A DNA stretch of 53,579 nucleotides from Chloroflexota bacterium (GTDB taxonomy: Bacteria > Chloroflexota > Limnocylindria > Limnocylindrales > CSP1-4): NCBI GenBank assembly GCA_013698095.1, contig JACCVQ010000030.1, positions 1 through 53,579 on the forward strand, in the 5' to 3' direction. Each line of letters begins with the position of its first letter. Within the stretch, counting starts at the first letter, position 1. Position numbers and translations under genes: made by a program. The notes below the pieces were generated by a model. The model saw only the letters and a program-made list of their open reading frames with translations. It did no database searches and was not told the origin of the DNA. Positions 22,311-53,579 of the stretch are shown here, one piece after another.

Positions 22311-22487
22311 ATGCGCAGAGGGTCTATCCGCGATCTCCCGGCGGGCCTTGACCGAAAGTCATGCCTTCACGGAATGCACCGCGATCGGAGTGTGGCTCTC
22401 GCCGCCATTTCATGCCCCCAGGGCATGAACTGCGCGCACCGCGGGCCCAACGTGTGGGATAGACCTTCCCGGAATAGTCGCCCGCAG
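22311..22487 (+). repeat. Copy B of the modular ~175-nt non-coding element
   Basis: Same four blocks and spacing as 91-268. The closing helix is 22318-22329 with 22457-22468. The right part overlaps the last ~26 codons of the 22410-23078 ORF. Confidence 0.7.
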
Positions 22488-23078
22488 GATCCCCGACCGG
22501 GCGAGCATCAGGATCGACACGAAGCCGAAGGCGCGTTGGCTGGACCGCGACGAACCCGCCCCAATGCGATTGGACGCTGTCAGCGCCGTCAACCCGCGCA
22601 CGAACACGCCGGCAGCGATGAAGCCGAGGGCCGCCGCCGATCCGAATCCACCGGGCGCAAGGTCTAGCCGAACGACGGCGACCGCGCCGGCGGCGAACGC
22701 AACACCGGGATCGAGCGCGCCCACGACACCCAGCCGGGCAGCCGCGCCGAGGACGGTGGTCGGCAGGACGGCGTTGCTCGACACCCCATAGGGACCGAGC
22801 AGCAGGCCCAGCGCGATCCAGCCCGCCACACCGACGAACAGCCCGGCGCCGATCGTCCCGCGCAGATTCGAGTCCGACACCAGACCACCGATCGCCGACC
22901 CGATCCACAGTCCGAGGACGACCAGGATCGCGTCGATCGCCGCGACGCCAGCCATGGCCCCGATCACGACGCGCAGCGATCGACGCTGCCAGAGGGCGGC
23001 CAGCAGGACCGACAGCATCGACGCCGGCAGGGCGACCACGAAGCCGACGAAGAATCCGATCGCGAAGTCGCCGGTCAT
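22410..23078 (-). CDS. Gly/Ala-rich polytopic membrane protein, unknown function
   Basis: About six hydrophobic segments. It begins 14 nt downstream of the DUF3307-like gene on the same strand. Confidence 0.6.
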   Translation of the reverse strand: MTGDFAIGFFVGFVVALPASMLSVLLAALWQRRSLRVVIGAMAGVAAIDAILVVLGLWIGSAIGGLVSDSNLRGTIGAGLFVGVAGWIALGLLLGPYGVSSNAVLPTTVLGAAARLGVVGALDPGVAFAAGAVAVVRLDLAPGGFGSAAALGFIAAGVFVRGLTALTASNRIGAGSSRSSQRAFGFVSILMLARSGILRATIPGRSIPHVGPAVRAVHALGA

Positions 23079-24825: not shown

Positions 24826-26403
24826 CTATCTGACTCCCATCTCGGCGACGATGTCGGCGACCCGGCTCCGGACGGCGGGGGTGTCGAAGCGAAGCAGCGG
24901 ATCGGGATCGACCGCCCGTTCGTCGATCTTGCCGGACCGGCGCAGGTAGAGGACCGGATAGACGGCCGCCGTCCCGTCCGCCTCCATGGTGATCCCGAGC
25001 GAATCGGCTGTGCCGTCGTCGCCCGCGCCGTCGAGGAAGGCGGACAGCGGGACGATTCCCTCGTCGCGCGCCCCGACTGACGGATCGAGCGAGATCACGC
25101 GGACGAGGTACGCCCGCTGATGCCACAGCTCGGGCGCGGCGGCAAGCTCGCCCAGGACGACATCGACGAGATCGGCTGGGGCGATCAGCGGCCGCTCAGG
25201 CACGTGGGAGGAAGCACGGCGTGCGATGTGGGCGGCCAGCACCCGGGCGTTGTAGCGTGCCCCGTGGACGGCCCCGGAGTTCGCCGGCAATCCGTGCTTC
25301 TTCAGCCCGGCCGAGCCCTGGCCGATCGTGCCCGCAAAGAAGATCCCCGGAACCGATGCGCTCTCCCAGTACGCGGTCTGGGCGGGCAGCCGGGCCTGGC
25401 CGAACGTCGTCACGCCGAGGTCCGCCAGGTCCAGCAACGGGGTGACGAAACCGGTCGCGGCAATGACCTCGTCGGCCTCGATCGCGAGCTCCTCGCCACC
25501 CGCCGACGGGCGAACGCGGACGATCAGCGGTCCGTCGGCGCCGGCCGGCCCGCGCTCGATCGACCCGATCGAGGCATCCAGGATCGACACCCCACCGCCC
25601 AGGACGTGGTCCTCGAATGGCTGGAGATAGCGCGCCCGGACCCCGACGAGGGATCGCGTGTTGACCGACAGCTTGGCCGGCGACGGCGAGGCGAGCAGGA
25701 TCCGACGGGCCCACGGGAGCAGCCCCGACGCCAGCTCGAAGCCCGAGTTCTGCTTGCCGATGATGAAGATCCGGCGGCCGGCGTATGTTTCGGCGGGGCG
25801 GGTGTCGGCGTAGTGGGCGGCGAGCTGGATACCGGGTGTCGCCGGTGCATACGGTTCGGCCACGCCGACGGCGAAGATGGCGACCGGGGTCCGGTACTCG
25901 CCGTCCGTGGTGGTCAGGACGAAGCTGTCGCCGGTGGGTCCGTCCCCGCGTCGAGTCGCGGTCCAGCGACAGTTGTAGCGGATCGCGAGCGACGTCCGCT
26001 CGACGAACGTCGCGATGTTCCGCTCCATCTCGGGTCGCGATGGGAAGTACGAGGTGCCGTCCATGAACTCGGGCATGATCGCCCGTTCGCCGGGGTTGTC
26101 GGCGAGGAGCGAGTTCCAGTCGTAGCGTTCGTAGGCCCGCGCGGTCCGATCGACCGGGGCGTAGGGCTTGGTCCATGACAGGAGGCGCTGGAAGAATGGC
26201 CAGCGCCGGAACATGCCGCCAGGCGCCGGGTCGGCCGAGATCACCGCATGGCTCAGCCCGAGGGCGCGGAGCGAGTACGAGACCTGGATTGCGCCAGGCC
26301 CGCTGCCGACGACGACGATCGGGTAATCGCCGGGCGGGAACGGTCGTTCGTTGTGTCGATCCGGGCCGGTCACCTCGTCGCCCGGAAGGCTCAGCTCCGC
26401 CAC
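24826..26403 (-). CDS. Two-dinucleotide-binding-domain flavoprotein (pyridine nucleotide-disulfide oxidoreductase/FMO-like) with an extra ~120-aa C-terminal domain
   Basis: IVVVGSGPGAIQVS (FAD) and IFIIGKQNSGFELA (NAD(P)). The GTG at 26403 overlaps the upstream gene by 13 nt; an alternative GTG lies at 26373. Confidence 0.8.
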   Translation of the reverse strand: MAELSLPGDEVTGPDRHNERPFPPGDYPIVVVGSGPGAIQVSYSLRALGLSHAVISADPAPGGMFRRWPFFQRLLSWTKPYAPVDRTARAYERYDWNSLLADNPGERAIMPEFMDGTSYFPSRPEMERNIATFVERTSLAIRYNCRWTATRRGDGPTGDSFVLTTTDGEYRTPVAIFAVGVAEPYAPATPGIQLAAHYADTRPAETYAGRRIFIIGKQNSGFELASGLLPWARRILLASPSPAKLSVNTRSLVGVRARYLQPFEDHVLGGGVSILDASIGSIERGPAGADGPLIVRVRPSAGGEELAIEADEVIAATGFVTPLLDLADLGVTTFGQARLPAQTAYWESASVPGIFFAGTIGQGSAGLKKHGLPANSGAVHGARYNARVLAAHIARRASSHVPERPLIAPADLVDVVLGELAAAPELWHQRAYLVRVISLDPSVGARDEGIVPLSAFLDGAGDDGTADSLGITMEADGTAAVYPVLYLRRSGKIDERAVDPDPLLRFDTPAVRSRVADIVAEMGVR

Positions 26404-26813
26404 CGGTTCGCGTTCCGCAGGCGGCGCGCCTGCGCCTGGAGCATCCGGTACATCAACGGCGGGTTGTCGAGCAGGACCGGCTGGACCTGAGGGCCTGACA
26501 GGACGAGCGTCCGGAGCGGACGCGACGCCACGATGTCGGCTCCGGGCGCCTCGCCGAGCAGGATCGACACCTCGCCGAAGAAATCGCCTCGGGCGAGGGT
26601 CGCGCGCTGGTCGCCGTCGATGACGACCGCGGCCTCGCCGTCGAGGATGATGTGAAAGGCCGAGCCGGAGAGGCCCTGGCGCAGGACCCGGGCGCCTTCC
26701 GGGTACACCGCCTCCTCGAACATGTGGGCGATCCGCTCGAGCTGGGGCGTCGCCAGGTCGGCGAACAGCGCGAAGCTGGCGATCTGGTCGACGATTTCGT
26801 CGGTGCTTGCCAT
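26391..26813 (-). CDS. Stand-alone cyclic-nucleotide-binding (CAP effector) domain protein
   Basis: 140 aa. FALFADL...VLRQGLSGSAFHIILDGEA...RGDFFGEVSIL (FGE phosphate-binding cassette). No HTH domain. Confidence 0.85.
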   Translation of the reverse strand: MASTDEIVDQIASFALFADLATPQLERIAHMFEEAVYPEGARVLRQGLSGSAFHIILDGEAAVVIDGDQRATLARGDFFGEVSILLGEAPGADIVASRPLRTLVLSGPQVQPVLLDNPPLMYRMLQAQARRLRNANRWRS

Positions 26814-26960
26814 GGGTGGTATCCCTCGCTTGTTCCCTCCGTGCATTCTGACATCGGACGGCGCAAGCGACGCATCGATCAGGACGGCGCTCCGGAGGCG
26901 GCGGCGGTTGACGAAGACCCGCTCGAACCCGCAGCATCGAGACCTGCCAGAGGAGAATTC

Positions 26961-27389
26961 GTGACCCTGACCGAGGATCGTCGAACCGAGCTGCTCGGCG
27001 GCTGCCCGCTGTTCACGGGCGTCCGACCCGAGGACCTGGCGGCGATCGGCGAGCGAGCGCTCGAGGTCGACTTCGGCGCCGACCATGTGATCGCCCGCCA
27101 GGGTGAGATCGGGACCGGGCTGTTCGTGATCGTGGAGGGCGCCGTTCGCGTCGTCCGTGATGGCGCCGAGCTCGCCCGCCTCGGTTCGGGCGACTTCTTC
27201 GGCGAGATGTCCGTGATCGACGGCCTGCCCCGCATCGCCCAGGTCGTGACCACCGAGCCGACCCGCTGCCTGGCCCTCGCCAGCTGGGAGTTCGAGCGGC
27301 TCGTCCTGGACCATCCCGCGATCAGCCTGGCGATCCTGCGCGGTCTGTCGGCCCGGCTCCGGGCGAAGACCGAACTGCCCCAGCACTGA
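26961..27389 (+). CDS. Stand-alone cyclic-nucleotide-binding domain protein, or the N-terminal domain of the downstream cyclase
   Basis: GTG at 26961 with AGGAGA 5 nt upstream. CPLFTGV...IARQGEIGTGLFVIVEG...GDFFGEMSVI. It ends at TGA 27387-27389, in the same frame as the cyclase ORF. Confidence 0.85.
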   Translation: MTLTEDRRTELLGGCPLFTGVRPEDLAAIGERALEVDFGADHVIARQGEIGTGLFVIVEGAVRVVRDGAELARLGSGDFFGEMSVIDGLPRIAQVVTTEPTRCLALASWEFERLVLDHPAISLAILRGLSARLRAKTELPQH

Positions 27390-30161
27390 CCGAGGCCCGC
27401 CACGGAGCCCACCGCCGGACGATTCCTGCCGACCGGGACCGTCGCCTTCGTCTTCACCGACATCGAAGGCTCGACCCACCTCGCCCAGACGCTCGCGGGT
27501 GACCGCTGGGAGGCGCTCCTCGACCGCCATCGGGCGCTAATCCGGGCGGCGGTCGCGGACCACGGTGGGCACGAGGTCCTGACCGAGGGCGACGGCTTCT
27601 TCCTGGTGTTTCCGCGGACCGCCGATGCCGTTGCGGCAGCAGTCGATGCCCAGCGCGCCCTGGCAGGCGAGCCGTGGCCGGACGACACTCCAGTCAGAGT
27701 CCGGATCGGGATCCATACCGGCGACGGTCGGCTCGATCGTGACGGCTCGTACGTCGGCGCGGATGTTCATCGGGCGGCCCGGGTTGCGGCCGCTGGGCAT
27801 GGCGGCCAGATCCTGGTGTCCGAGACGACGTCGACCCTCGTCGCCGACGAGCTGCCCGCCGGCGTCGCGCTGCGCGGCCTGGGCGAGCATCGCCTCAAGG
27901 ACCTCCGGCCCGAGCGCATCTGCCAGGTCGACATTGCCGGACTTCGAACCGAGTTTCCCCCGATCCGCTCCCTCGACCGACGGCCCAACAACCTGCCGAC
28001 CCAGCTGACCAGCTTCGTCGGGCGCGACGCCGAGCTGCGCGCGGCCGGCGAGCTGCTTCGCTCGACCCGGCTGCTGACCCTGACCGGCCCGGGCGGCACG
28101 GGCAAGACCCGCTTGTCGCTCCAGCTCGCCGCCGACGTCGCCGAGCGCTTCGCCGATGGGACGTGGTTCGTGGCGCTGGAGCCGGTCCGCGACCCTGGCA
28201 TGGTCGCGGCCACGATCCTCACGACGCTCGGCCTGGTCGAGGCGGGCGGGCGGCCCGCCCGCGACATCCTCATTGACTGGCTGGAGGGGCGCGAGGCCCT
28301 CCTCGTCCTCGACAACTTCGAGCAGGTGATCGACGCCGCGCCGACGGTCGCGGCCATCCTCCGCGGCGCTCCGCATGTCTCTTTCGTCGTCACGAGCCGG
28401 GCTCCGCTCCGGGTCAGCGGCGAGCAGGAGTACCCCGTTCCAGGGCTGCCCGCTCCGCGTGACGTCCTCGCTCTGACGGACCTCGAGAAGATGAATCTGC
28501 CGGCCGGCGATCGGCTCCTGGGCGCGGCGGCCGCGACGATGTACGAGGCGGTTCGCCTGTTCGTCGCCCGCGCCGTCGCGGTCCGTCCCGACTTCACGGT
28601 CACCAACGACAACGCACCGGCCGTGGCCGCGATCGCCGCCCGCCTCCACGGGATGCCGCTCGCCATCGAGCTCGCAGCCGCGCGCGTCAAGCTGCTGTCG
28701 CCCGATGCGATCCTCGAGCGGCTGGAGCACCAGCTCGGGGTCCTGTCGGCCGGCGCACGGGACCTGCCGGAACGGCAGCAGACGCTGCGCGGCGCGATCG
28801 CCTGGAGCCACGACCTGCTCGGCGAGGGCGAGCGTCGCCTGCTTGCCCGCCTGTCGGTATTCGTTGGTGGCTGCGAGCTCGACAGCGCCGAGGCGGTCTG
28901 CGGACCGCCGTCGGAGCTGGATGGCGTCGAGGTCATCGACTGCCTGACCTTCCTCGCGGACCAGAGCCTCGTCCGGGCGGAGGATGTCGAGGGTGGCCTC
29001 CGGTTCCGGATGCTCGATACGATTCGCGAGTTCGCGGCCGAGCAGCTGGAGGAGCGAGGCGAGCGGGTGGAGATCAAGCGTCGCCACACAGAGACGTTCG
29101 TCGCCTTCGCGGAAGCCCTCACGCCGCGCCTGTCGAGAGACGATCAGCGCCTCTGGCTCGGCCGGCTCGAGCGCGACCACGACAACATCCGGGCGGTTCT
29201 CGACCGGGCGGTCGCCGCCGGCGACGGGCAGACCGCGATCCGGCTCGGGTTCGCCATGTGGCGCTACTGGCAGAAGCGCGGCCACCTCGCCGAGGCCCGC
29301 CGCCGACTCCAGGCGATGGCCGATGCGCCGTGGTCGCGCGACGATCCGCGCCTCCGGGCCCGGCTCATGGAGGCGTTCGGCGGGGTCTGCTGGTGGCAGG
29401 CGGACATCGCGGCGATGGGTCGCGCCTATGCGGAGGCGCTGGAGCTGTGGCAGTCGATCGGCGACGAGCGCGAGATCGCGAATGCCCTCTACAACGACTC
29501 GTTCCGCTTTGCCGTCAGCGTCACCCCGACGGGCGACCGGGACCCCGAGCGGCTGGGCTACAAGCAGATGCATCGGGCGCGCGAGGCCGCCACCGCTGCG
29601 GGCGATGAGCGCGGACGGGCGAACGCGCTCTGGGGGATCGGCAACTGGCTCTACTTTCACGCGGCCGACGACAGCGGGATCAGCCAGTTCGATGAGGCGC
29701 TCGACGTGTTCCGGCGGCTCGGCGATCGGACGATGGAGGCGTGGTCCCACCACATGCTCGGCATCGCCCAGATCCGGTTCGGGCAGCTCGACGAGGCCCG
29801 CCGCAACGGGCACGCAGCGATGCGCCTGTTCCACGGCTTTGGCGACGTGGCCGGGATCACGCTCTCGCTCGACGACTTCGCCTCGATCGCGATCGCGGCC
29901 GGCGACCTGCTGCGGGCGGCGAAGCTGTGGGGCGCCGCCCGGGCCCTGTCCGCGGCCGGGGGTGTCGGTCTGGCCGATTTCGTCGACAGCCAGTTCGAGT
30001 TCTACGGCCGGCCGAGCACCCGGGACACGATCGATCCGGAGGAGCTGGACCGGAACGCCCAGGAGGGCCGGGCGATGACGCTCGACGAGAGCGTGGCGTA
30101 CGCGCTGGAGGTGTCGATCGACGAGCTGGCGCCGCACGACCACGCCGGCGCGAACCGGTGA
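27390..30161 (+). CDS. Class III adenylate/guanylate cyclase domain, P-loop (STAND/NB-ARC-like) ATPase and TPR protein; start codon unresolved
   Basis: GTVAFVFTDIEGST (27435-27476), EGDGFFLVF and RIGIHTGD; Walker A GPGGTGKTRL; TPR-like C-terminal half. The first in-frame ATG/GTG/TTG is at 27606, inside the cyclase domain. Confidence 0.85.
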   Translation, partial: PRPATEPTAGRFLPTGTVAFVFTDIEGSTHLAQTLAGDRWEALLDRHRALIRAAVADHGGHEVLTEGDGFFLVFPRTADAVAAAVDAQRALAGEPWPDDTPVRVRIGIHTGDGRLDRDGSYVGADVHRAARVAAAGHGGQILVSETTSTLVADELPAGVALRGLGEHRLKDLRPERICQVDIAGLRTEFPPIRSLDRRPNNLPTQLTSFVGRDAELRAAGELLRSTRLLTLTGPGGTGKTRLSLQLAADVAERFADGTWFVALEPVRDPGMVAATILTTLGLVEAGGRPARDILIDWLEGREALLVLDNFEQVIDAAPTVAAILRGAPHVSFVVTSRAPLRVSGEQEYPVPGLPAPRDVLALTDLEKMNLPAGDRLLGAAAATMYEAVRLFVARAVAVRPDFTVTNDNAPAVAAIAARLHGMPLAIELAAARVKLLSPDAILERLEHQLGVLSAGARDLPERQQTLRGAIAWSHDLLGEGERRLLARLSVFVGGCELDSAEAVCGPPSELDGVEVIDCLTFLADQSLVRAEDVEGGLRFRMLDTIREFAAEQLEERGERVEIKRRHTETFVAFAEALTPRLSRDDQRLWLGRLERDHDNIRAVLDRAVAAGDGQTAIRLGFAMWRYWQKRGHLAEARRRLQAMADAPWSRDDPRLRARLMEAFGGVCWWQADIAAMGRAYAEALELWQSIGDEREIANALYNDSFRFAVSVTPTGDRDPERLGYKQMHRAREAATAAGDERGRANALWGIGNWLYFHAADDSGISQFDEALDVFRRLGDRTMEAWSHHMLGIAQIRFGQLDEARRNGHAAMRLFHGFGDVAGITLSLDDFASIAIAAGDLLRAAKLWGAARALSAAGGVGLADFVDSQFEFYGRPSTRDTIDPEELDRNAQEGRAMTLDESVAYALEVSIDELAPHDHAGANR

Positions 30162-30509: not shown

Positions 30510-31415
30510 ATGACCGCCGAGGCGACTCAGCCGCCCGCATTCCAGCCCGATTCCGGCCCACCGGCGCCTGTCACGGCGCCCCGCGAGAAGACCGCGATCC
30601 CGAAGAATCCGGGTCGTCGCGAGCTCGGGATGAAGGCCACCCTCCTGTTTCCCAACAAGGAGATCGTTGAGCAGTACTACGTCCCGCTGATCTACACCGC
30701 GTGCCGGACGTGCTACTCGGAGCTGACGCCGGACGACATCTTCGACCGGGCGGCGACCGGCCAGATCGACCAGGCGAAGATGCAAAAGTTGATCTCGGGC
30801 GTGATCGAGTCGGGGCACGGATCGACGATCGAGCACGTCGTCTTCACGTTCGGCATCAGCGGCGTCTCGCGGACCCTGTCGCACCAGCTCGTCCGCCATC
30901 GGGCAGGCGTCGCGTTCGACCAGCAGAGCCAGCGCTACGTGACGTTCAAGGGGGCGTCGACGATGCTGCCGGCCTCGATCGAGGACGCCGAGCCGGAGCT
31001 GCGCGACGCCTACAACGAGCAGATCGCGGGCTCGATGGACCTGTACGGCCAGCTCGTGGGAGCCGGGATCCCCGGTGAGGACGCCCGGTTCGTCTTCCCG
31101 AACGCAACCCGCACCAACCTCGTGATGACGACCAACCTGCGGGCGCTGATCCACATGTCCGGACTGCGACTGTGCACGATGGCCCAGTGGGAGATCCGTC
31201 GGCTGTTCCAGCTGATCCGCCACGAGATCTTCCAGGTGTCGCCGTTCCTCGGTTCGTTCCTCGCCCCGAAGTGCGTCGCCCTCGGCTACTGCGACGAGAT
31301 GGGCAACCGAGATGAGCACTGCCCCATCCGGCCCCACAAGGACAACGTCCTCGGCGCCTGGGCCGAGAAGTCGAAGGCCGCCAAGGCGGCGGGGCGCGAG
31401 CTGACCGTCAAGTAG
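30510..31415 (+). CDS. thyX: Flavin-dependent thymidylate synthase
   Basis: ThyX motif LVRHRAGVAFDQQSQRY. An alternative start is at 30630 (MKATLLF). The C-terminal tail is Cys-containing. Confidence 0.9.
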   Translation: MTAEATQPPAFQPDSGPPAPVTAPREKTAIPKNPGRRELGMKATLLFPNKEIVEQYYVPLIYTACRTCYSELTPDDIFDRAATGQIDQAKMQKLISGVIESGHGSTIEHVVFTFGISGVSRTLSHQLVRHRAGVAFDQQSQRYVTFKGASTMLPASIEDAEPELRDAYNEQIAGSMDLYGQLVGAGIPGEDARFVFPNATRTNLVMTTNLRALIHMSGLRLCTMAQWEIRRLFQLIRHEIFQVSPFLGSFLAPKCVALGYCDEMGNRDEHCPIRPHKDNVLGAWAEKSKAAKAAGRELTVK

Positions 31416-34025: not shown

Positions 34026-35420
34026 ATGGCAACCACCGACGCCCGAGCCGGTTTCCGGCTTCCCTGGAGCTCCGAGCGACAGTCGACCGACCATGTCGGC
34101 GAGTCCGCCGATCGGGACGTCGCAGCCGCGACGGGCTGGCCGTCCGAGGACACCGCGCAGCAGGACGCTGCCTCGCCGGACGCCGCCGTCGCGACCATCG
34201 CCGAAGCGCCCGCCACCGACACAGGCCCTGGCCAGGCCCAGCCCGACCGAGGCCCGGTCGAGCCCGCTGCGCCGAAGCCGCCGACCGGCAAGAAGCCCAG
34301 CAAGTTCATGGCCGACCTGACGAAGGCGATGCAGGCTGCGGCAGAGGATGCCCGCACCCGCGCCCTCGCCCAGCTCCAGTCCGACGCCAAGACCCACGTC
34401 GAGGCGATCCATGGCCGGTCCGCGACCGACGCCGCCGGGCTCCGCCGCAAGGCCGATGACGATGTCGCAACGGTCCGCGAGTGGTCCAAGGCAGAGATCG
34501 CCCGGATCCGCGAAGAGACCGAGACGAAGATCACCGAGCGCAAGGCCGGCCTCGAGACCCAGATCGAGCAGCACGCGGCCGTGATCGAGCGCGAGATCGA
34601 TGCCGTCCAGAAGACGGTCGCCGCGTTCGAGGAGGCCATGGCCGCCTTCTTCGAGCGGCTGCTCGGCGAGGAAGACCCCAGCCGGTTTGCCACGCTGGCC
34701 GAGAACCTGCCCGAGCCGCCGTCCTTCGACGGGCTCCTGGCCGGCGCGTCCGACGAGGACGAGGGCGAGGCCGCGGTCGCGAACGCGACCGTGGTCGAGG
34801 TCGTCGAGGTCGTCGAGGCTGAGGGCGCCACGCTTGAGTCGAACCCTGGCGGGGCCGACGACACGACGCTCGACGGCGACGTCGATGAGACCGAGCCTGG
34901 GCCGAACGGCGAGCTCGATCGCGAATCCGCCTTCGCCGCGATCCAGGCCACCGCCCAGGCCGCCGCCAACGCCGAGGATGCCGCGGACCCGCGCTTCGCG
35001 GCGCTCGGCCTGTCGCCGGACTACGACGCGGCGGAGGCCGAAGCCCTCGCCGACGCCGGCGACTCCGACGAGGAGATCCCGGAGATCGGTGACGACGCCC
35101 TCGCCGCCCGTATCGCGGGCCTGGTGCCCGGCAAGGGCAAGACCGACGAAGCGGCCACCTCGACCCAGGTCGTGGTCGTCGGGCTCGTGAGCGTTGCCAG
35201 CATCGCCAGCTTCAAGCGCCATCTCGGCCGCCTCACGGGCGTCCAGTCGGTCGGGGTCTCCTCGGGCCCTGAGGGCGAGTTCATCTTCGCCGTCAGCCAC
35301 GGAGCAGACGTCGTCGTTCCCGACGCCATCCCGTCCCTGCCGAGCTTCCAGGCACGCGTCACCGGATCAGCCGATGGCATCGTCCACGTCACCGCTCACG
35401 ATCCGGAGTCGGACGCCTAG
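34026..35420 (+). CDS. Acidic coiled-coil protein with a small C-terminal alpha/beta domain, unknown function
   Basis: 464 aa. The central heptad-like charged region begins about aa 95 (KFMADLTKAMQAAAEDARTRALAQL...), followed by a long D/E-rich linker. The C-terminus is VVVVGLVSVASIASFKRHLGRLTGV...FIFAVSH. Confidence 0.7.
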   Translation: MATTDARAGFRLPWSSERQSTDHVGESADRDVAAATGWPSEDTAQQDAASPDAAVATIAEAPATDTGPGQAQPDRGPVEPAAPKPPTGKKPSKFMADLTKAMQAAAEDARTRALAQLQSDAKTHVEAIHGRSATDAAGLRRKADDDVATVREWSKAEIARIREETETKITERKAGLETQIEQHAAVIEREIDAVQKTVAAFEEAMAAFFERLLGEEDPSRFATLAENLPEPPSFDGLLAGASDEDEGEAAVANATVVEVVEVVEAEGATLESNPGGADDTTLDGDVDETEPGPNGELDRESAFAAIQATAQAAANAEDAADPRFAALGLSPDYDAAEAEALADAGDSDEEIPEIGDDALAARIAGLVPGKGKTDEAATSTQVVVVGLVSVASIASFKRHLGRLTGVQSVGVSSGPEGEFIFAVSHGADVVVPDAIPSLPSFQARVTGSADGIVHVTAHDPESDA

Positions 35421-37402: not shown

Positions 37403-38050
37403 CTACGAGCGATCCTGCCACGTGGTTCCGCCCAGGGGTCGTCCCGGTAACTTCTGGGCCTTGATCCCGGTCCGCTTGTCGACCTGCTCGACGCCCCGTA
37501 GGTAGAAGCGGTTGACGAGCACCGTATCGACATCCGGATCGCCGACCCGGACTTCGCCAAGCATGGCCACGGCGTCGACGACCGGTACGAACATCTCTGT
37601 CGCACGATCGAGGAGGCGGTCGGGCTCGGACCCCGGGTGGAGGTAAACCGTGCCGATGACCCGGAACGGGGGCACCTCGAGCGCCACGTCGTACGACACC
37701 TTGTGGATCCGGTGGGCGGCCCGATCGGTATCGCTCAGCTCGGGCAGGGAACCGTCGCCGGCCAGGACGAGGATCAGATCGTAGGGGTCGACGCTCTTCA
37801 AACCGGATGCCTCGACGAGCGGCGCCGAGCCGTCGATCGGCGCCCACTGGACATCGTGGATGGCGATCGCCTCGCGCTTGTTCAGGGCGTCGGACAACCG
37901 GCCCTCGACCGTCATCCGGCCCACGAGCCGCCATTCCTCCGTGACGGCATCGAAGGCGGCGCCGGTTCGTCCGTGCGGGCTGGGTGCCGCCGCCGCCACG
38001 CTGGGCGTCCTCGCATCGGCCTTCTTGCGACGCAGGAAGTTCAAGGGCAC
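37403..38050 (-). CDS. Conserved-looking hypothetical protein with an internal duplication
   Basis: 215 aa with high GC3. Two similar halves (WRLVGRMTVEGRLSDALNKRE... and FRVIGTVYLHPGSEPDRLLDRA...). Confidence 0.6.
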   Translation of the reverse strand: MPLNFLRRKKADARTPSVAAAAPSPHGRTGAAFDAVTEEWRLVGRMTVEGRLSDALNKREAIAIHDVQWAPIDGSAPLVEASGLKSVDPYDLILVLAGDGSLPELSDTDRAAHRIHKVSYDVALEVPPFRVIGTVYLHPGSEPDRLLDRATEMFVPVVDAVAMLGEVRVGDPDVDTVLVNRFYLRGVEQVDKRTGIKAQKLPGRPLGGTTWQDRS

Positions 38051-45460: not shown

Positions 45461-47068
45461 TCAGGCGCCCGGGATGCGGATGGCCAGCAGCTGTCCGCCT
45501 TCGAGCTCGAAGCGAGTTGCCCCGATCTTGTCGTTCTTGAGGATCAGGGAGCCCGCCTGGATATCGACCAGGAACCAGCCCGGACCGAAGGCCGCGGAGG
45601 CGTCGATGATCCCGCTCGATTCCCACGCACCGGCACGCGCCGCGTTGGCGTTGTAGGTGTCGGTGTCGATGGCCGACTCGTCCAGTGACTGGTTGACCTT
45701 GGCGACGACCTCGAGGGTCTTGTCGGACAGGTCATAGCGCCAGATCCGGGCGGTCGAGCCCTGCGGCCCGTTCGAGAACTGGTTGTGACCACCCGGGTCC
45801 TCCTGGATCAGGAGGCTGTTGGCGGTGGTCTCGATGTTGTCCGGCTGATGGATGACGCCGGCGTAGGCGCCATAGCCGCCGGCGTCGGCATCGATCAGGA
45901 TCGACAGGCTGTCGACGACCTTCGGATCGTTCTGGTTCAGAACCATCTTCCAGACCCGGCCGTTCGGGAACGGACCCTGGAAGCTCGACGCCTCGCGCGT
46001 CATCCGCGCCGCCGCCGTAGCGCCCGGCTTGGCCCGCGGCTCACCCGTGTCGGCGAAGTAGACGATGTTGGAGTTCGTGCGGTCGTACGCGATGTCCTCG
46101 ACGCGAATGAACTGGAAGACCTCGTTGGCGTTTGACCAGGTCTCGAGCGGACCCTGCGGCCCCTGGGCGATCGCCTTGGGTACCTCGATGAACCGGCCGG
46201 ACACCTCTTCAGTGCCGGTCACGTCGCTGTAGTCGTTGTTGGCCAGAAGGTCGGTCCCGGGATTGGCGGCGAACGCCCAGAGTGCGCCCTGATCGTTCCA
46301 GACCGCGTTCGTATCCGCGGCAATGTAGCTGTAGAGCTGGGAGGCCGGGGCGCTGAACGTGTCGTCACCCGACAGGATGACGAGGTCCTCGTAGCCCGGG
46401 ATGGCGACACTGTTCTCGTGGTTGTGGCGACCCATCCCGTAGATCGTCTTGTAGGCCCCGCTCTTCACGTCGTACGCGACGACCACGCCGCCCTGCTCCG
46501 GGTTCGAGCCGCCCGCATCGAGCGGGAAGGCCGTGCCGGTCCGGTTGACCGTGTCGGTTGCTTCCTCGTTGGCGAAGAGGATGTCGCGATCGAAGCCCTG
46601 CGCCGCCGTGGCCAGGAAGTTCGAGCAGAAACGCTGGTAGTTGGCGCTCGAGGGGATGACGTACTCCGCGTTCAGCGCGCCCATCGAGTTCTGATTCAGG
46701 GCGATCCGGCTGACCTGCGCGTTCGTGTAGTCGCTGAAGAGCTCCGGCGTGACCGGGAAGGGCACGAGAGAGGTCTCATGGTTCAGGTAGACGTCGACGC
46801 GGCCCTTGCCCTTCACGGTGAACGAGATGCCGTCCATCAGCGAGTCAGCGGTGTAGCCGTCATCGCCGACGGCGTCGCCCACCGTCAGGATCGGCACGAT
46901 CGAGACGTCCGACCGGACCTTGTCGAGCATTGATGGCGCGGTCGTCCTGAAGCCGCCGCTCGCGGCGCTGGCCGGAATGGCGATTGTGGTGGCGGCGACG
47001 ACAGTGGCAGCCAGAACGGCCAACGCGCGAACGCGGCCGAGGGGCGCTCGGGACCGAGTCGGGTCCAT
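45461..47068 (-). CDS. Secreted PhoX/DUF839-like protein (putative phosphatase)
   Basis: ATG at 47068 with GGAGGAGGAG upstream. Signal segment ALAVLAATVVAATTIAIPASA. YGMGRHNHENS and beta-propeller-like repeats. Confidence 0.8.
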   Translation of the reverse strand: MDPTRSRAPLGRVRALAVLAATVVAATTIAIPASAASGGFRTTAPSMLDKVRSDVSIVPILTVGDAVGDDGYTADSLMDGISFTVKGKGRVDVYLNHETSLVPFPVTPELFSDYTNAQVSRIALNQNSMGALNAEYVIPSSANYQRFCSNFLATAAQGFDRDILFANEEATDTVNRTGTAFPLDAGGSNPEQGGVVVAYDVKSGAYKTIYGMGRHNHENSVAIPGYEDLVILSGDDTFSAPASQLYSYIAADTNAVWNDQGALWAFAANPGTDLLANNDYSDVTGTEEVSGRFIEVPKAIAQGPQGPLETWSNANEVFQFIRVEDIAYDRTNSNIVYFADTGEPRAKPGATAAARMTREASSFQGPFPNGRVWKMVLNQNDPKVVDSLSILIDADAGGYGAYAGVIHQPDNIETTANSLLIQEDPGGHNQFSNGPQGSTARIWRYDLSDKTLEVVAKVNQSLDESAIDTDTYNANAARAGAWESSGIIDASAAFGPGWFLVDIQAGSLILKNDKIGATRFELEGGQLLAIRIPGA

Positions 47069-47209
47069 CGATTCTCCTCCTCCAGGGGTCTCGGGGTCCG
47101 GATTGGCGTGGAGCGCGGGGGTTTGATGCAATGGTCGTCCGTCGGCGCGATCTCGACAACTGGCGGCCCGAGCGCGGGTCGCGGCGACGGTGCCGGGGCG
47201 CACCGCCCT

Positions 47210-48892: not shown

Positions 48893-49035
48893 GGGCGCCT
48901 CCAGAAGTTGTTGGGGGACGCGCACGAGTCGACCCCGGACAGTGGTCGGGTCAGGGTAGCGCGGTCGCGGGGATCGAGAGATCGAGGGCCGCACGCAGGC
49001 ACCGGGCAGCGGGCTCCTGGAGCGGGTCTGGCGCC

Positions 49036-52000
49036 CTACTCGCCGAACAGGCCCAGCTGCTCGCCGCTTCGTTCGGCGACGGGATCGAGGCCGAGGTACG
49101 GCTCCAGGCCGTCGAGTGACAGCTCGTCACGGGCCAGGAACGAGCGAAGGTGGTTCCACTTGAGGACGTGCCAGTTGTCGCGCTCGAACGCTTCCCGCAG
49201 GAGGGGCGAGCGCTCGATCTTGTGGCGCACCAGCTCGGTCCGCTCCGGGGCGATCACGAGGAACCGCACCATGCCCTCGTCCTGGGCGATCCTGACGTGG
49301 CGGCGGAGGACCGGCTCGCTCAGCATGGCGGTCCACTCGACCTCGAACAGGAATGACAGGCGGCCGCGGACGTACCAGGCGCAGTCGACTTCGGCTATTT
49401 CCTCGACCGACCGGTTGATGTGGGACAGCGGGGTCCGCAGATCGCGCTCGTCGAGGCGGTCGCCGAGGCGCCCGCTCCCGAGCCGGCGAGCCTGTTCGCG
49501 GCGGCCGATCCAGACCGACAGCCCCAGGCGATGGCCGCCGTCGGCCAGGGCGGCGATCAGCTCGGCGTGGTCCTGGGCGCGCTTGAGCAGGTCGTCGCCC
49601 GTGATGATCCGGTCCGCGGTGCTCGCCCGGCTGCGGTAGCTGGCGAGGCACGCTCGGACGAGGGTCTCGTCGGGCAGATCGTGGCCGCTGAACAGCCCGG
49701 CGATCCGCTGGAGGAACGCCGACTCGGACATCGGGCCCGACGTCGACAGCAGGCTGAAGACCGCCCACTCGACTCGGTCGGCGAGCGGCACGGCGGCGGT
49801 CTCGCGGTCGCGTGGGTCGGCCAGCCACCAGCGGCCCGGGACCACCTCGGCAAGGCGGCGTTGGCCGCTTTCGGCCATCCCGTCCCGGATCAGCGCGAGG
49901 AGCGACTCGACCTGGTCGGGCGGCGGCTCGGAAGGCCGGAGGATCCGGCGTGGTTCGGTCGCGCCCGGGACGGGCGCCCGACCGGCCACAGCCCGATCGG
50001 ACGAGGGGGCGTGTTCGTCCGCGCTGCCCGCCCAGGCCTCCCGTCGAGGGCTGTTCGTCGGGCTCGTGGACACGTCGGCTTCGCGGTTGCCGGCGGCCGC
50101 CGGCTCGCCCTCGATCGCCGGGTCCATGAGCGCCGGCTCGCTGGCTGCGCGGGCGGGCGGCGCCTCATCGGGGGCGTTCACCGGGCCTGTGGACGGCAGA
50201 CCGCGATCGGCGATCAGGCGTCGGAGTTGGCCGGCGCGATCGAGACCCACAAGCACCTCGCCGAGGAGGCGATCACCCGATGCCGGTTCGCCACGGGCCT
50301 TCAGGCTCTCGACGGCGACCTCGACGACCGTGTGGCGGACGTCCGCTGCCGAGAACGGTCGCCGATCGAAGCGCTCCGGGGCGCTGAACAGGCCGCCGCC
50401 CGGGACGAGGTCCGGGTCGCCCGGTCCGCCCGTTGCGGGATGGAGCGAGACGTTCGCTCGGGTCCGGGGACCCGGCGGCAGCACGGCGCCCGGCGGGACG
50501 AGCTCGACGATCCCGTACGCCTCGTCGTCGCCGTCCCCGAGCCGGGCCGAGCGGAGACGGAAGCCGGCCCCGACCCCGCCGAGGGCCGCCGCGACGAGGG
50601 CCTCGGCGCCCCCGTCGACGAGCTGGACGACCTCACCGTCGCGGGCGAGCGACGGCTCGATCGAGGCAAGCGAGCGGGCGAGCGCGGCTGCCTGCCAGCC
50701 CCACGGCGCCCGGATCGGGGGGCCGGACAACGCCGCCAAAGGCAGGCCCGAGGCGGCTTCCGATCCCACGGTCCAGGCGGTTGCCCAGTACGTCAGCGAC
50801 AGTCGTTCCTGGTTGGGCCGGACCGGCGGCTGGCCGAGCACAAGCCGGATCCGGCGTCGGAGCGTGGGGCCGCCCTCCCAGCCTCGACCGAGCGACGCTT
50901 CGGCGCCGATCGCGCGCGTGGCCGACGGCCCGGTGACCCCGACCACCGCGGTCGCGCTGCCCTCGTCGAGCGACTGGAGGTCATGGCCGAGGCGGGCCTG
51001 GACGGCGCCACCGGGACCGCTCTCGAGCCGCTGGATGAAGCCGCGGACCGTCCGGATGCCGTCTTCGAAAGCCAACCACGGATTGCGCTCGCGCCATTGA
51101 CCCGATCCGGGTGGGCGAACGTGGCCGGCCTGGACCCGGAGCGTGCCCAACCGCCCCGGGTAGCCGTTGAGCCGGCTCGCCGGGAGCAGCGTGTGAAGGA
51201 ATCCGAGCCGCAGTGCCGCCTCCACCGGCGCCGCCCGAAGATCACTCTCGATCCGGTCGAGGATCGCTTCGAGACCGACGAGCTGGCGTGGGGTGTGCAG
51301 ATCGAGCAGGCCGTCGACGAGGTTCGCCCCGCCATCGACGACCGGAAACCGTTCGGCGAGCCGGGCGCGCGCGGCGGCGATTCCCTCGGGAACCGCCCGG
51401 GCGCGGCTCAGGTCCGCCTCGTCGAGCTCGGCGTTGCGCTGGTCGCCACCGCGCTGGCCGCGACAGACGGGGCAGGCGTAGAACTTCCGGGCTCGGGGTC
51501 GATCGCGGTCGGCGCTCGAACGAGCGGCCCGGGCCTCGGCGGCCCGTGGTTCGGCGGCCGCGTCCACGGTTGGCGCATCTGGCGATGCAGCCTCGACAGG
51601 TCCTGCGGCGGCCGGCGGTGTCGCTCGCCGTCGTCCGTCGCCGGGTGGCGCGATGCTGGCCGGCGCCGGATCCTGCTCGGCGTCGAACCCGGCGGCGGCC
51701 TGGAGCTCGGGTTCGTCGACGCCGGACGGCCCGGGCCAGACCACCTCATCGAGGGTCAGGCTTCGACCGCAGGTGGCGCAGCGAGTCGTGAAAAGCTCGC
51801 CGACCGCGACCTTCAGGCTCGTCTGGCCGCGTGGCGAGGCGCCCATCGCCTGGAACGCGGCGTCGAGGTGGCGCAGGTCGGGCGGGCGGAGGACGAGCTC
51901 GGCGAGGAGCCGGGTGAGCGGCGTCGATTCGAGGCTGACCGCCCGGCGCTGGCGGTCGACCGCCGCGCGGGCCACCCAGCCGCCCCGGCCGTTGAGGTCG

Positions 52001-52137
52001 AGGACGACGTCACCGGCCGCGGTGTGCGCGTCGATCCGGCCGGCGATCAGGCCGGGCGGCGGCGGCGGAGCCAGGCGGTCGAAGAACGGTAGCGAGAAGC
52101 CCGGCTCCGCTCGGACCAGGGACGCTCGACCCGCCAT
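49036..52137 (-). CDS. 1033-aa Zn-ribbon methyltransferase-like protein (degenerate motif IV) with a C-terminal PD-(D/E)xK-like region
   Basis: Motif-I-like VVLDLNGRGGW...AVSLESTPL. CxxC at aa 120-123 and 222-225. HTPRQLVGLEAIL. QPPV (50821-50832) where [DNS]PP[YFW] is expected, followed by LSLTYWATAW. C-terminus VDCAWYV...FLFEVEW...FLVIAPE. Confidence 0.75.
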   Translation of the reverse strand: MAGRASLVRAEPGFSLPFFDRLAPPPPPGLIAGRIDAHTAAGDVVLDLNGRGGWVARAAVDRQRRAVSLESTPLTRLLAELVLRPPDLRHLDAAFQAMGASPRGQTSLKVAVGELFTTRCATCGRSLTLDEVVWPGPSGVDEPELQAAAGFDAEQDPAPASIAPPGDGRRRATPPAAAGPVEAASPDAPTVDAAAEPRAAEARAARSSADRDRPRARKFYACPVCRGQRGGDQRNAELDEADLSRARAVPEGIAAARARLAERFPVVDGGANLVDGLLDLHTPRQLVGLEAILDRIESDLRAAPVEAALRLGFLHTLLPASRLNGYPGRLGTLRVQAGHVRPPGSGQWRERNPWLAFEDGIRTVRGFIQRLESGPGGAVQARLGHDLQSLDEGSATAVVGVTGPSATRAIGAEASLGRGWEGGPTLRRRIRLVLGQPPVRPNQERLSLTYWATAWTVGSEAASGLPLAALSGPPIRAPWGWQAAALARSLASIEPSLARDGEVVQLVDGGAEALVAAALGGVGAGFRLRSARLGDGDDEAYGIVELVPPGAVLPPGPRTRANVSLHPATGGPGDPDLVPGGGLFSAPERFDRRPFSAADVRHTVVEVAVESLKARGEPASGDRLLGEVLVGLDRAGQLRRLIADRGLPSTGPVNAPDEAPPARAASEPALMDPAIEGEPAAAGNREADVSTSPTNSPRREAWAGSADEHAPSSDRAVAGRAPVPGATEPRRILRPSEPPPDQVESLLALIRDGMAESGQRRLAEVVPGRWWLADPRDRETAAVPLADRVEWAVFSLLSTSGPMSESAFLQRIAGLFSGHDLPDETLVRACLASYRSRASTADRIITGDDLLKRAQDHAELIAALADGGHRLGLSVWIGRREQARRLGSGRLGDRLDERDLRTPLSHINRSVEEIAEVDCAWYVRGRLSFLFEVEWTAMLSEPVLRRHVRIAQDEGMVRFLVIAPERTELVRHKIERSPLLREAFERDNWHVLKWNHLRSFLARDELSLDGLEPYLGLDPVAERSGEQLGLFGE

Positions 52138-52503
52138 CCGGACAGCCTACTCGCGCCAGGCAGGACCCGTCGGGGCCCGAGCTGGCACTTGGCCGACCTG
52201 GCTCGCGGGTCGAGCCAGGCGCGCGGCCCGACAAGACGCGATCCCTGCCGAAAGGCTGGAATCCCGGCCGAAACGTCGTCAACCAGTCACTCGGGGACTG
52301 GTACGTCGGGATGCACGGCCGCTCGGGATCGAATCGTCGGGCGATCGCGGTGCACCGAGCGTGATGGACTGGCGCGGCGACAGAATGCCGCGGACATTGG
52401 CGCCATACCAGTCCATGGAAGACTGTTGAGCGAAGCTCTCAGGCCCGGGCCGCTCGCCGCGTCGTGACGCCGCCAGCGGCGTTCAGGCGCGCCAGCCCGC
52501 GAT

Positions 52504-53382
52504 CTAGCTCTCGTCGGCCTCGTCGAGCTCTTCCTCGAAGGCTTCGTCGGTCGTGGCCTCGGGCGGCAGGACGCGGTCGAGGTCCTCGATCTCGTCGTCC
52601 TCGTCGTCGTCCTCGAGATCCTCCTCGAGATCCATCTCCTCGCGAACGAGGGTGCCCTTCGTATACGGCCGCAGGTCAGTCGACTTCGCCGCGGTCGGGA
52701 AGGACACCTTGCCGTAGTTGCGGGGGTCCTGGTAGATCTCGCGGATGATGATCCGGACGTCCTTGTCCCCGAGCGAGGTCACGCCCGCGGCGTACTTGTT
52801 GCCGTCGGCCATGAGCTTCAGCAGGCGAGCGGCGACGCGCGGCTCGACGATCCCGATCCGCATCCCGTTGCTTGTCGCGATCAGGCGTCCGCTCTCCGGC
52901 GCGAGCTCGACCGCATCGCCCGGGTTGACCTGGGCGAGCTTGCGCGGATGGGGCAGGTCGGTCAGGAATGCGAAGCCGGTCTTGCCGGTCTCCTCGACGA
53001 AGATCGAGACGGCGGCCTTGCTGCCCTCCTGGGCCGGAACCGTCTTCTCGCCGGCGTCGACGAGGAGGATCCGGAGGCGATCGATGTTGCGCTCGGCGAT
53101 CCGGTTGGTCGGATCGAGGGCGAGTGCCGTCTGGTAGTGCTCGCGCGCCTGGCCCAGCTCGCCGAGCTCCCAGAGCGCCTTGGCGAGGCGGTTCTCCGCC
53201 TCCGCGTCAGGCCCGAGCTCGAGCAGCCGCTGGTTCGTCTCGGTCGCCTCGGCCCACTGCGCCGCCGTCGCCTGGGCGATCGCCTGGTCCGACAGCTGGC
53301 GCTTCAGCCGGGTCTGGTTGACGGCGCTCGTTGCCTGGGTCTCGACGTCGGGAAAGGTCACAGGGAGAGTCTCCGATTTCAT
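52504..53382 (-). CDS. TPR-repeat protein with a central beta-rich domain and a strongly acidic C-terminal tail
   Basis: ATG at 53382 (MKSETLPV). TPR-like AKALWELGELGQAREHYQTALALDPTN. Tail EEMDLEEDLEDDDEDDEIEDLD...EEELDEADES. Confidence 0.8.
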   Translation of the reverse strand: MKSETLPVTFPDVETQATSAVNQTRLKRQLSDQAIAQATAAQWAEATETNQRLLELGPDAEAENRLAKALWELGELGQAREHYQTALALDPTNRIAERNIDRLRILLVDAGEKTVPAQEGSKAAVSIFVEETGKTGFAFLTDLPHPRKLAQVNPGDAVELAPESGRLIATSNGMRIGIVEPRVAARLLKLMADGNKYAAGVTSLGDKDVRIIIREIYQDPRNYGKVSFPTAAKSTDLRPYTKGTLVREEMDLEEDLEDDDEDDEIEDLDRVLPPEATTDEAFEEELDEADES

Positions 53383-53444
53383 GCGGGGCGACGCCGTCGG
53401 GATGGCCGTAGCCGGGTGCCGGAAGCCGATCGGGCGGGCATGGA

Positions 53445-53473
53445 CTTGTAGCATCGCAGGCAGCCCACGTCAA
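53445..53473 (-). promoter_or_regulatory. Candidate sigma-70-type promoter upstream of the TPR gene
   Basis: On the minus strand: TTGACG (53473-68), a 17-nt spacer, then TACAAG (53450-45). It lies about 60 nt upstream of the ATG. Confidence 0.3.
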
Positions 53474-53579
53474 ACGTCCGAGGCCTTGGCACGCGACCGG
53501 GCGGACGCGCCACGCGGCCGCACGCGGCGGCTCCGGTCGGCGGCCGCGCCCGGCGAACGCTCTCGTCACAGGTCAGCCG

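Follow-up and report, generated by a model that had tools for sequence, protein, structure and literature searches.

A pseudo-methyltransferase, zinc-ribbon and nuclease-like fusion protein with a putative clamp-binding tail, conserved in Limnocylindria (Chloroflexota)

What role might a protein play that joins a degenerate DNA methylase to a nuclease-like module, and does its gene belong to the defence repertoire or to the core chromosome of its host? The question is raised by an open reading frame (ORF) on the minus strand (49036–52137) of a contig from a Chloroflexota bacterium of the class Limnocylindria (assembly GCA_013698095.1, contig JACCVQ010000030.1), which was analysed over the whole of its 53,579 nucleotides (hereafter, the window) and in which an earlier, sequence-only reading had described a giant methyltransferase-like protein that could be a DNA-sensing, defence or repair factor. 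On balance, the product of this ORF (hereafter, the target) is read here as a domesticated, chromosomally fixed fusion of restriction-modification (RM) type, in which a dead-methylase DNA reader, a nuclease and a clamp-binding tail would be combined in replication or repair. Its domain architecture and its standing as a pseudo-methylase are held with high confidence.

The ORF is judged genuine: it comprises 1033 codons beginning with ATG, its third-position GC content of 0.87 is typical for genes of this window (~70% GC), and its N-terminus is kept from residue 1 in homologues. An 890-amino-acid (aa) ORF lying antisense to it (49420–52092, plus strand) was rejected as a GC-rich shadow frame, unsupported as a gene. 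A word-indexed search returned 1493 homologues and an exhaustive search 1330 representatives at E ≤ 0.001, numbers that place the target far above chance; almost all are unnamed "hypothetical proteins" of Candidatus Limnocylindrales/Limnocylindria (Chloroflexota). The sole precomputed Pfam label on the target is PF27126 (NmeDI_C); scans of the target sequence alone against Pfam and NCBIfam gave no match above threshold, including none to a methyltransferase (MTase) family, and a PDB sequence search with the full-length protein gave no meaningful match. A promoter and terminator scan of positions 48900–53579 found none, and RNA-seq yielded marginal k-mer shares only, in two RNA runs.

An AlphaFold2 (AF2) model built on 24 close homologues reached a predicted local distance difference test (pLDDT) score of 48 only, and a 56-sequence alignment (18–87% identity) was used instead. 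The resulting model has a pLDDT of 81.8 and a predicted template modelling (pTM) score of 0.80, the latter of which indicates a compact multi-domain assembly whose modelled parts are packed with confidence. The gene divides as follows:

49036..52137, minus strand: whole gene, encoding a predicted 1033-aa fusion of pseudo-methyltransferase, Zn-ribbon, winged-helix and NmeDI_C nuclease-like parts, with a C-terminal Qxx[LM]F tail.
51838..52137, minus strand (aa 1–100): N-terminal half of a split Rossmann MTase-like fold, from AF2 secondary structure.
51426..51822, minus strand (aa 106–237): Cys4 zinc ribbon with knuckles C120-x-x-C123 and C222-x-x-C225.
50863..51420, minus strand (aa 240–425): helical/beta insert that separates motif I from motif IV, similar to a target recognition domain (TRD) and marked by invariant columns.
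50497..50856, minus strand (aa 428–547): C-terminal half of the Rossmann fold, with beta-4 (430–435), then Q436-P-P-V439, then LSLTYWATAW.
49939..50193, minus strand (aa 649–733): low-complexity linker from the methylase-like half to the C-terminal module, predicted to be disordered (pLDDT below 50).
49588..49917, minus strand (aa 741–850): winged-helix-like module, with AF2 helices at 785–799, 805–815 and 824–834 and strands at 835–837 and 844–846.
49108..49587, minus strand (aa 851–1010): NmeDI_C-type PD-(D/E)xK-like nuclease core, from PF27126, PADLOC REase_II and the AF2 order of elements.
49036..49077, minus strand (aa 1021–1033): flexible tail ERSGEQLGLFGE and the stop codon, including Q1027-L-G-L1030-F1031.

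The positions first assigned to the key motifs hold under minus-strand arithmetic (QPPV, aa 436–439, at 50821–50832; D918 at 49384–49386; E932-x-E934 at 49336–49344), and the other motifs then named (CATC at 120–123, CPVC at 222–225, HTPRQL, WRERNPW, LSLTYWATAW, and GAGFRL) were found and are conserved. The accompanying proposal of a DNA-MTase-like module, zinc ribbon included, in the N-terminal half is supported by its relatives: PF01555 (N6_N4_Mtase) matches 24 of the 56 aligned sequences (best 7.2e-16), PADLOC models of Type II MTases (MTase_II) match up to 40 of the 56, and in a viral library (BFVD) Foldseek ranks an N4-cytosine DNA MTase first for the whole model, with 567 columns aligned and a probability of 1.00. 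Foldseek against the PDB gave weak E-values, yet nearly all of the matches are class I S-adenosylmethionine (SAM) methyltransferases; the best E-values of the whole model, reported without aligned query ranges, were 0.14 (PDB) and 8.9e-3 (viral library). The module is thus placed by homology with the N6/N4 amino-DNA methyltransferases and by fold with the Rossmann-type class I MTases, the target alone being below threshold.

Within the first 100 residues, beta-1 (44–50) leads into a degenerate motif I, DLNGRGGW (47–54), and beta-2 (65–70) ends at the acidic E70; in the relative P0117, aa 27–71 weakly match the C-terminal, motif-I end of PF01555. The zinc ribbon is four-stranded in the model (117–119, 126–134, 217–220, and 234–237), each knuckle sits between strands, and its cysteines are invariant or near-invariant throughout all clades. 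The Ala/Pro-rich stretch of ~95 aa that had been seen to split the ribbon is indeed there, and is a lineage-specific insertion that the model leaves disordered: it spans aa ~136–214 (51495–51731; pLDDT < 50 over 148–194), measures ~80–95 aa in the target, the longest among 24 aligned close homologues (~20–40 in the others), and is missing from clades whose proteins have 755–890 aa. The same clades lack the linker at aa 649–733, which is Ala/Pro/Asp-rich, has a mean column identity of 0.47 (vs. 0.73–0.83 elsewhere) and follows a short helical unit (aa 597–643, AF2). In the insert between the two methylase motifs, TPRQL (R284) and E350-x-N352-x-W354 are superfamily-invariant.

The condition of the methylase motifs can be read against a sister clade in which they are intact (P0308, P0375, and ~1300 relatives of ~840 aa, from Ignavibacteriales, Thermodesulfobacteriota, Bacteroidota, and the candidate phyla radiation). 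Its members are annotated as "DNA adenine methylase" or "DNA methyltransferase", carry PF01555, PF02086, and NmeDI_C, and have canonical motifs (DPFxGxG in 113/115, [DNS]PP[YFW] in 114/115); like the target, the clade is itself without experimental characterisation. BLASTP connects it with the target at E 9e-25 in the C-terminal half; towards the N-terminus the E-value is 4e-10, and over motif IV it is 1e-3. The two share domain order, zinc ribbon, TPRxL, ExNxW, the winged-helix DRVE and D..W..FE[VI]E, and the chain closes in Qxx[LM]F or Y[NS]LF; the sister clade differs in keeping canonical methylase motifs, in lacking both disordered linkers and in being spread over several phyla, whereas the target's clade appears to be confined to Chloroflexota-labelled genomes (and a few bins labelled otherwise). 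Homologues keeping DPPY within a described RM or BREX-like system had been envisaged beforehand as an alternative; homologues with DPPY were met only in this distant clade (24–29% identity), which does not make the target part of a described RM or BREX system.

Where BLASTP aligns the target segment LVLGQPPVRPNQERLSLTYWATAW with IFTDPPYDSSIQYGELAYLWTAW of the intact cousin P0375, QPPV stands in register with DPPY, so that Q436 occupies the place of the catalytic Asp and V439 that of the stacking Tyr; in the motif-I/Zn-finger region (E 4e-10), motif I faces DPFSGSG. A distribution scan with one genome per species found a relative in 393 genomes, and details are given for the best 80 of the 393 (52–82% identity), all of them Limnocylindria-class metagenome-assembled genomes except for a few bins labelled otherwise. 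Across these 80 species motif I reads DL[F/A/H/N/S]GRGGW, with Arg fixed at the central Gly of FxGxG and the Phe of DPF gone in most, and motif IV reads GQPP[V/I/M/L]R, which confirms the degeneracy of motif IV that had been noted in the single sequence. The target itself has neither FxGxG in motif I (DLNGRGGW) nor (D/N/S)PP(Y/F/W) in motif IV (QPPV). Other Chloroflexota clades are degenerate in another way, DPF being kept and the glycines gone (DPFCRTD and similar), with [S/A/T/R]PPx or SPAR at motif IV. Because the degenerate states are fixed over 80 species, they point to an ancient pseudo-methylase under purifying selection and not to a decaying gene; methyl transfer has presumably been lost in the target.

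The C-terminal half begins with a module (aa 741–850) that carries PLADRVEWAV, in which E790 (of DRVE) is invariant superfamily-wide, and that may be a winged helix, judging by the order of secondary structure alone. It is followed by a module (aa 851–1010) for which a PD-(D/E)xK fold is probable. In the AF2 model its elements run helix 850–870 (D856), beta 874–877, D918, beta 919–923, beta 926–934 (E932-V-E934), helix 940–949, beta 957–962, and helix 964–976 (R966, K973), an order that fits an alpha-beta-beta-beta-alpha-beta core in which D918 precedes beta-2, ExE lies on beta-3 and the third residue is E, not K. BamHI likewise uses a D...ExE variant in place of D...ExK. PF27126 is recorded (precomputed) on the target and on most homologues, and the PADLOC profile REase_II aligns aa 855–940 of the target with profile positions 176–265 of 351 (E 0.0059) and matches 18 of the 56 relatives (best 3.8e-5). 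Weak fold matches, without query ranges, were to EcoT38I (7edb; probability 0.66), a cyanophage "restriction endonuclease" (probability 0.82), and an MmcB-like repair nuclease (probability 0.69). A 22-sequence profile of the C-terminal module gave no meaningful match among PDB sequences; its matches to prokaryotic Argonaute proteins, at E 0.15, were rejected as spurious.

Conservation of the core is strict. FEVEWT is present in 80/80 Limnocylindria species, K973 is invariant and R966 nearly so, D918 occurs in every listed variant, and D..W..FE[VI]E is found in 115/115 members of the intact clade. Profiles, secondary-structure order and weak fold matches all agree with the proposal from the sequence-only reading of a nuclease-like C-terminus that includes this D and this ExE. 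One residue has to be reassigned: the acidic residue of the first helix had been taken to be the Glu of HAELIAAL (E859), and the conserved position is D856 instead, which is mostly E or D in relatives and Q in 7/80. Nuclease activity is predicted for the target.

The main new lead of the analysis, absent from the earlier description, is the C-terminal tail. The target ends in EQLGLFGE-COOH, and so carries QxxLF in a flexible terminal segment, as expected of a clamp-client peptide; AF2 leaves the tail undocked, with pLDDT falling from 65 to 46, as a linear motif would lead one to expect. Bacterial clamp binders have been described with the consensus QL[S/D]LF, more generally QxxLF, usually C-terminal (PMC12309361, PMC4549789). 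Limnocylindria tails read GEQ[L/M]x[L/M]F plus one or two further residues, other Chloroflexota have QLSLF, QLPLF, or QMELF at the very C-terminus, and the intact clade has QMNLF, QERLF, QGRLF, or the variant Y[N/S]LF. A Qxx[LM]F among the final nine residues was found in 117/120 close homologues, 33/37 divergent degenerate homologues and 73/115 intact-clade homologues, and in 0/713 neighbouring genes of the same loci. From this pattern, docking of the tail on the DnaN beta sliding clamp is considered probable. The alternative that survives best, although it is unlikely, is that Qxx[LM]F is an intramolecular or oligomerisation peptide, or is bound by some other protein, for instance the highly conserved TPR protein encoded directly upstream in Limnocylindria: binding of short C-terminal peptides is common among TPR domains, and in the intact clade the second motif position can be charged or Gly, but the tail is kept in clades that have no TPR neighbour, fits the published consensus and its C-terminal site, and is not docked within the AF2 model.

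The setting of the gene bears on whether it serves defence. In the best 80 of 393 the order of genes is conserved, and it involves the upstream features listed here, the second of which lies beyond the window's right end and is given at two related loci:

52504..53454, minus strand: upstream TPR protein with an acidic C-terminal tail, matching Pfam TPR_1/TPR_2, 366 bp upstream of the target on the same strand.
Locus L001, 3655–5550 and 5573–6484, and locus L002, 5623–7593 and 7557–8441: PolX and a ~300-aa gene.

The order runs PolX, a gene of unknown function (~300 aa), a variable part, TPR, target, DUF885, and further on an FAD oxidoreductase, an aminotransferase and IclR; among 82 related loci, TPR is present in 72, DUF885 in 77, and PolX in 61, absences being due mostly to truncated contigs. 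The window otherwise holds genes of an ordinary chromosome (oligopeptide ABC transporter, peptidases, Tag glycosylase, ThyX, acetyl-CoA synthetase, MscS), and Rfam and tRNA scans of it found no RNA genes. In three contexts outside Limnocylindria, and in two from the intact clade, the gene stands alone amid housekeeping genes, without TPR, PolX or RM partners, its neighbours in the non-Limnocylindria clades being tRNA synthetases, RNase J, and glucose-6-phosphate dehydrogenase. Scans of viral contigs found no relative of either the target clade or the intact clade. The distribution is therefore not of the accessory, patchy or mobile kind seen with RM-type genes, given the shared gene order and the lack of viral relatives; it corresponds to a core gene passed on vertically, not to a gene of defence islands. 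A defence role, one of those first suggested, is accordingly disfavoured by the fixed synteny in all 80 Limnocylindria loci retrieved, the housekeeping neighbours and the viral-contig result.

The TPR protein had been proposed as the only nearby candidate partner. It is syntenic with the target in 72/82 Limnocylindria loci, where its 74–95% identity makes it more conserved than the target, but only there, the gene being absent beside target homologues in the three non-Limnocylindria contexts, and functional linkage is unproven. Its strongly acidic C-terminal tail covers ~45 residues, its aa ~140–270 match nothing, and a PDB search returned generic TPR matches only. The PolX-family polymerase (HHH_8, DNA_pol_B_thumb, PHP) and the unannotated ~300-aa gene stand a few kb upstream of the TPR–target pair in 61–63 of the 82 loci, a region that could be a repair neighbourhood or mere class-wide synteny. 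A functional link of the target to PolX or DUF885 by synteny alone was rejected, since the metabolic neighbours are equally syntenic.

The reading favoured here assembles these observations into a sequence of events that remains a proposal. The ancestor would have been a single chain in which an alpha-order N6/N4 DNA MTase with a zinc-ribbon/TRD insert was followed by a winged-helix-like module and an NmeDI_C nuclease of PD-(D/E)xK type. In Limnocylindria the methylase would have become a pseudoenzyme, kept as a DNA-binding and possibly base-flipping reader, with strict selection acting on the nuclease triad D918/E932/E934 (D...ExE, the first helix adding the acidic D856). The protein would most likely dock on DnaN by its flexible QLxLF peptide, and the nuclease would act on newly replicated or clamp-marked DNA, in replication-coupled surveillance, incision or repair, not in phage defence. 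A role in replication or repair, taken by itself, is put forward tentatively, at somewhat less than even weight.

Several points tell against this reading. Gln436 could in principle still hydrogen-bond the target amino group, and some methyl transfer could thus persist. The whole-model Foldseek E-values are weak (0.14 for the PDB, 8.9e-3 for the viral library) and come without query ranges, so that the call of a nuclease fold draws mainly on the Pfam and PADLOC profiles and on secondary-structure order. The presumed third catalytic residue is E instead of K, a putative D...ExE variant in the target family. Anaerolineae-type Chloroflexota clades replace ExE (FVVQW, FVVRW, FIFRE) while keeping D918, the protein and the tail, which means that the shared core function may not need nuclease catalysis. 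PolX synteny could reflect class-wide conservation of gene order, DUF885 and metabolic genes being equally syntenic. Finally, the motif Qxx[LM]F is short, its clamp partner is a prediction, and in the intact clade tails such as QERLF and QGRLF have a non-hydrophobic second position.

The origin of the methylase module speaks for a defence role. The sequence-only reading had likened its layout to that of COG1743/DUF1156 methylases lacking the DUF1156 module, which is consistent with weak matches of the NCBIfam model DUF1156_antiphage in intact cousins, at profile positions 185–218 (motif I) and 572–603 (motif IV) and far below cut-off; the order and spacing of the two motifs (~390 residues) are as in the target, and no DUF1156 Pfam match was found in any of the 56 family members. 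PADLOC PglXI matches the insert-equivalent region of an intact cousin at E 1.7e-46, and matches P0184 at 2.3e-6. In PglXI (BREX) and the DUF1156/COG1743 methylases, as in the target, motif I and the later motif IV are set apart by ~390 aa that hold a zinc ribbon and a helical insert. The target differs from them in its degenerate catalytic motifs, its extra nuclease and its lack of a DUF1156 N-terminal module; all matches are far under curated cut-offs, and the similarity to PglXI does not go beyond the methylase core. No PglZ, BrxC, or other BREX genes are annotated by Pfam in the window or related loci, and these loci likewise hold no DUF499 ATPase, DUF3780, or helicase genes, in agreement with the earlier remark that no partner ATPase or helicase was seen; membership of a BREX or DUF1156 system was rejected on the absence of these partners. 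Stand-alone plasmid homologues of the methylase module adjoin McrBC-like and other RM genes, and, taken with the DUF1156_antiphage and PglXI matches, this argues for RM/defence ancestry of the module. The sole defence-like neighbourhood seen for the superfamily is at locus L087 (17840–18529), where, ~6–8 kb downstream of an intact-clade member, a XhoI-type restriction gene is accompanied by an N6_N4 methylase and a Phd/YefM antitoxin.

Such an ancestry leaves room for a solitary, Type IV-like restriction or defence enzyme whose dead pocket reads N6-methyladenine (m6A), N4-methylcytosine (m4C) or foreign bases and whose fused nuclease cuts. An enzyme of this kind would need no cognate methylase, which would explain the absence of partners; the nuclease domain is common to R.NmeDI, the nuclease motifs are intact and no protective MTase is found in the window. 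This explanation is nevertheless improbable, because the fixed synteny and 52–82% identity of the best 80 of 393 differ from the patchy, fast turnover usual for defence genes, the setting is not a defence island, a clamp-type tail would be unexpected and no known modified-base reader domain was detected.

Slightly less probable still is a scaffold in which both halves are dead, that is, a protein binding DNA and the clamp, with an architectural or regulatory part to play at replisome or nucleoid, in which the acidic residues bind metal or DNA without cleavage. The sister clades that drop ExE lend it some weight, since they keep the zinc ribbon, E350/N352/W354, DRVE, and the tail, which shows that the shared function outlasts both catalytic sets; against it stand the invariance or near-invariance of FEVEWT, D918, R966, and K973 in 80 species and of D..W..FE[VI]E in 115/115 intact-clade members, strict retention of an acidic triad being typical of active sites. 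The least likely explanation, a non-canonical DNA (or RNA or protein) methyltransferase-nuclease still active through QPPV and GRGG in a Type IIC, BtgZI-like order, can point to the Gly-rich GRGG loop, the retained acidic E70, a Gln that could mimic Asn/Asp at motif IV and the BtgZI precedent for an N-terminal MTase with a C-terminal PD-(D/E)xK variant (PMC4081073), and is very improbable in view of the Arg in place of a side-chain-free Gly, the change of the stacking aromatic to V/I/M/L in all 80 species, the mostly missing DPF Phe, the other degenerate clades without glycines (DPFCRTD) and a target that falls under every Pfam and NCBIfam MTase threshold.

A domesticated RM-type fusion with a clamp tail, the reading preferred above, resembles several described systems in part. 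Type IIC enzymes such as BtgZI are also single chains with the methylase first, a recognition insert between motifs I and IV, and last a variant PD-(D/E)xK domain, the variant in BtgZI having been noted in a review of Type II enzymes (PMC4081073); the two were compared by described domain order. The target is unlike BtgZI in having no functional-looking MTase, fixed synteny in every Limnocylindria locus retrieved rather than the patchy occurrence of an RM gene, and a clamp-type tail; of the features that define Type IIC/IIG enzymes, it combines methylase and nuclease in one chain and lacks a catalytically competent, host-protecting methylase. R.NmeDI of Neisseria meningitidis has the PF27126 C-terminal module in common with the target, and the 351-position REase_II model equals its length; it is a Type II enzyme of 351 aa that stands alone, its C5-methylase and Vsr partners being separate, and its catalytic residues were not defined in that study (PMC2095814). 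The target, by contrast, is a 1033-aa fusion without C5-methylase or Vsr partners.

For the predicted coupling to the clamp there are functional analogues only. NucS/EndoMS combines a PD-(D/E)xK-type domain with a C-terminal clamp motif. Another case is MutL, a clamp-tethered repair nuclease (PMC6511837). Both are like the target in that a nuclease is recruited through a short clamp-binding peptide (the target's binding being predicted), and unlike it in size and in an entirely different architecture, with no sequence relation or detected fold relation. For the methylase half, a parallel is METTL14, a subunit of the eukaryotic RNA m6A writer, which has EPPL instead of DPPW and works with an active partner. 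In METTL14 as in the target, a degenerate motif IV and SAM site appear to be under selection as a nucleic-acid-binding scaffold, the target having no evident active partner.

No description of the target family was found in the searchable literature on PF27126, clamp-binding methyltransferases or Limnocylindria DNA repair. The amino-MTase, the zinc ribbon, and the PD-(D/E)xK/NmeDI_C domain are of known kinds. What appear to be undescribed are the synteny-fixed fusion across Limnocylindria, the fixation of two degenerate motifs in its methylase and the superfamily-wide clamp-type tail.

Other genes of the window and of related loci deserve mention. At 45461–47203 (minus strand) a 580-aa protein with a signal-like N-terminus has no Pfam match; its counterpart at L002 is labelled PhoX, and it occurs in 22/82 loci, unlike the flanking genes. 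Small stand-alone Cas4/PDDEXK_1 genes (L084, 15288–15809; L085, 4875–5474) lie within 3–5 kb of a family member at two of three divergent-clade loci, a small sample. The 851-aa protein encoded at 27606–30161 (plus strand) matches AAA_16 and, at its C-terminus, TPR_12 just below the Pfam curated cut-offs, an architecture resembling a STAND/MalT-like regulator; a cyclic-nucleotide (cNMP)-binding protein adjoins it (26391–27530, minus strand). Three ORFs (22410–23078, minus strand; 34026–35420, plus strand; 37403–38050, minus strand) are well supported by third-position GC and belong to no Pfam family at E ≤ 1e-5. A Tag-type 3-methyladenine glycosylase (3544–4221, plus strand) and ThyX (30510–31415, plus strand) are also encoded in the window; the former means that the organism here keeps an alkylation-repair glycosylase reported lost in freshwater Limnocylindraceae (PMC13212565).

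Even without clamp binding, more than 1,300 representatives of "hypothetical proteins" are now open to domain-based annotation. A wider proposal, offered as speculation and rather unlikely, is that the superfamily of MTase plus NmeDI_C proteins is a hitherto unrecognised class of clamp-tethered DNA-modification and incision factors, a bacterial counterpart, with a nuclease, of PCNA-coupled (DNMT1-like) maintenance methylation; in Chloroflexota, where the methylase is dead, the protein would inspect fresh DNA (for strand discrimination, mismatch, damage or incision of foreign replicons), possibly checked by its TPR neighbour. If the favoured reading is true, an RM-type enzyme has been domesticated into a core chromosomal factor with a dead methylase as reader and a live nuclease, both coupled to the clamp. 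The bacterial clamp interactome would gain a new kind of client, and the protein would be a prokaryotic example of a pseudo-methyltransferase, for which METTL14 is the eukaryotic analogue; from the intact sister clade, methylation coupled to replication would be suggested for several further phyla. For Limnocylindria, a large uncultured lineage of soil and freshwater whose DNA-repair repertoire is under discussion (PMC13212565), the protein would then be a candidate genome-maintenance factor.

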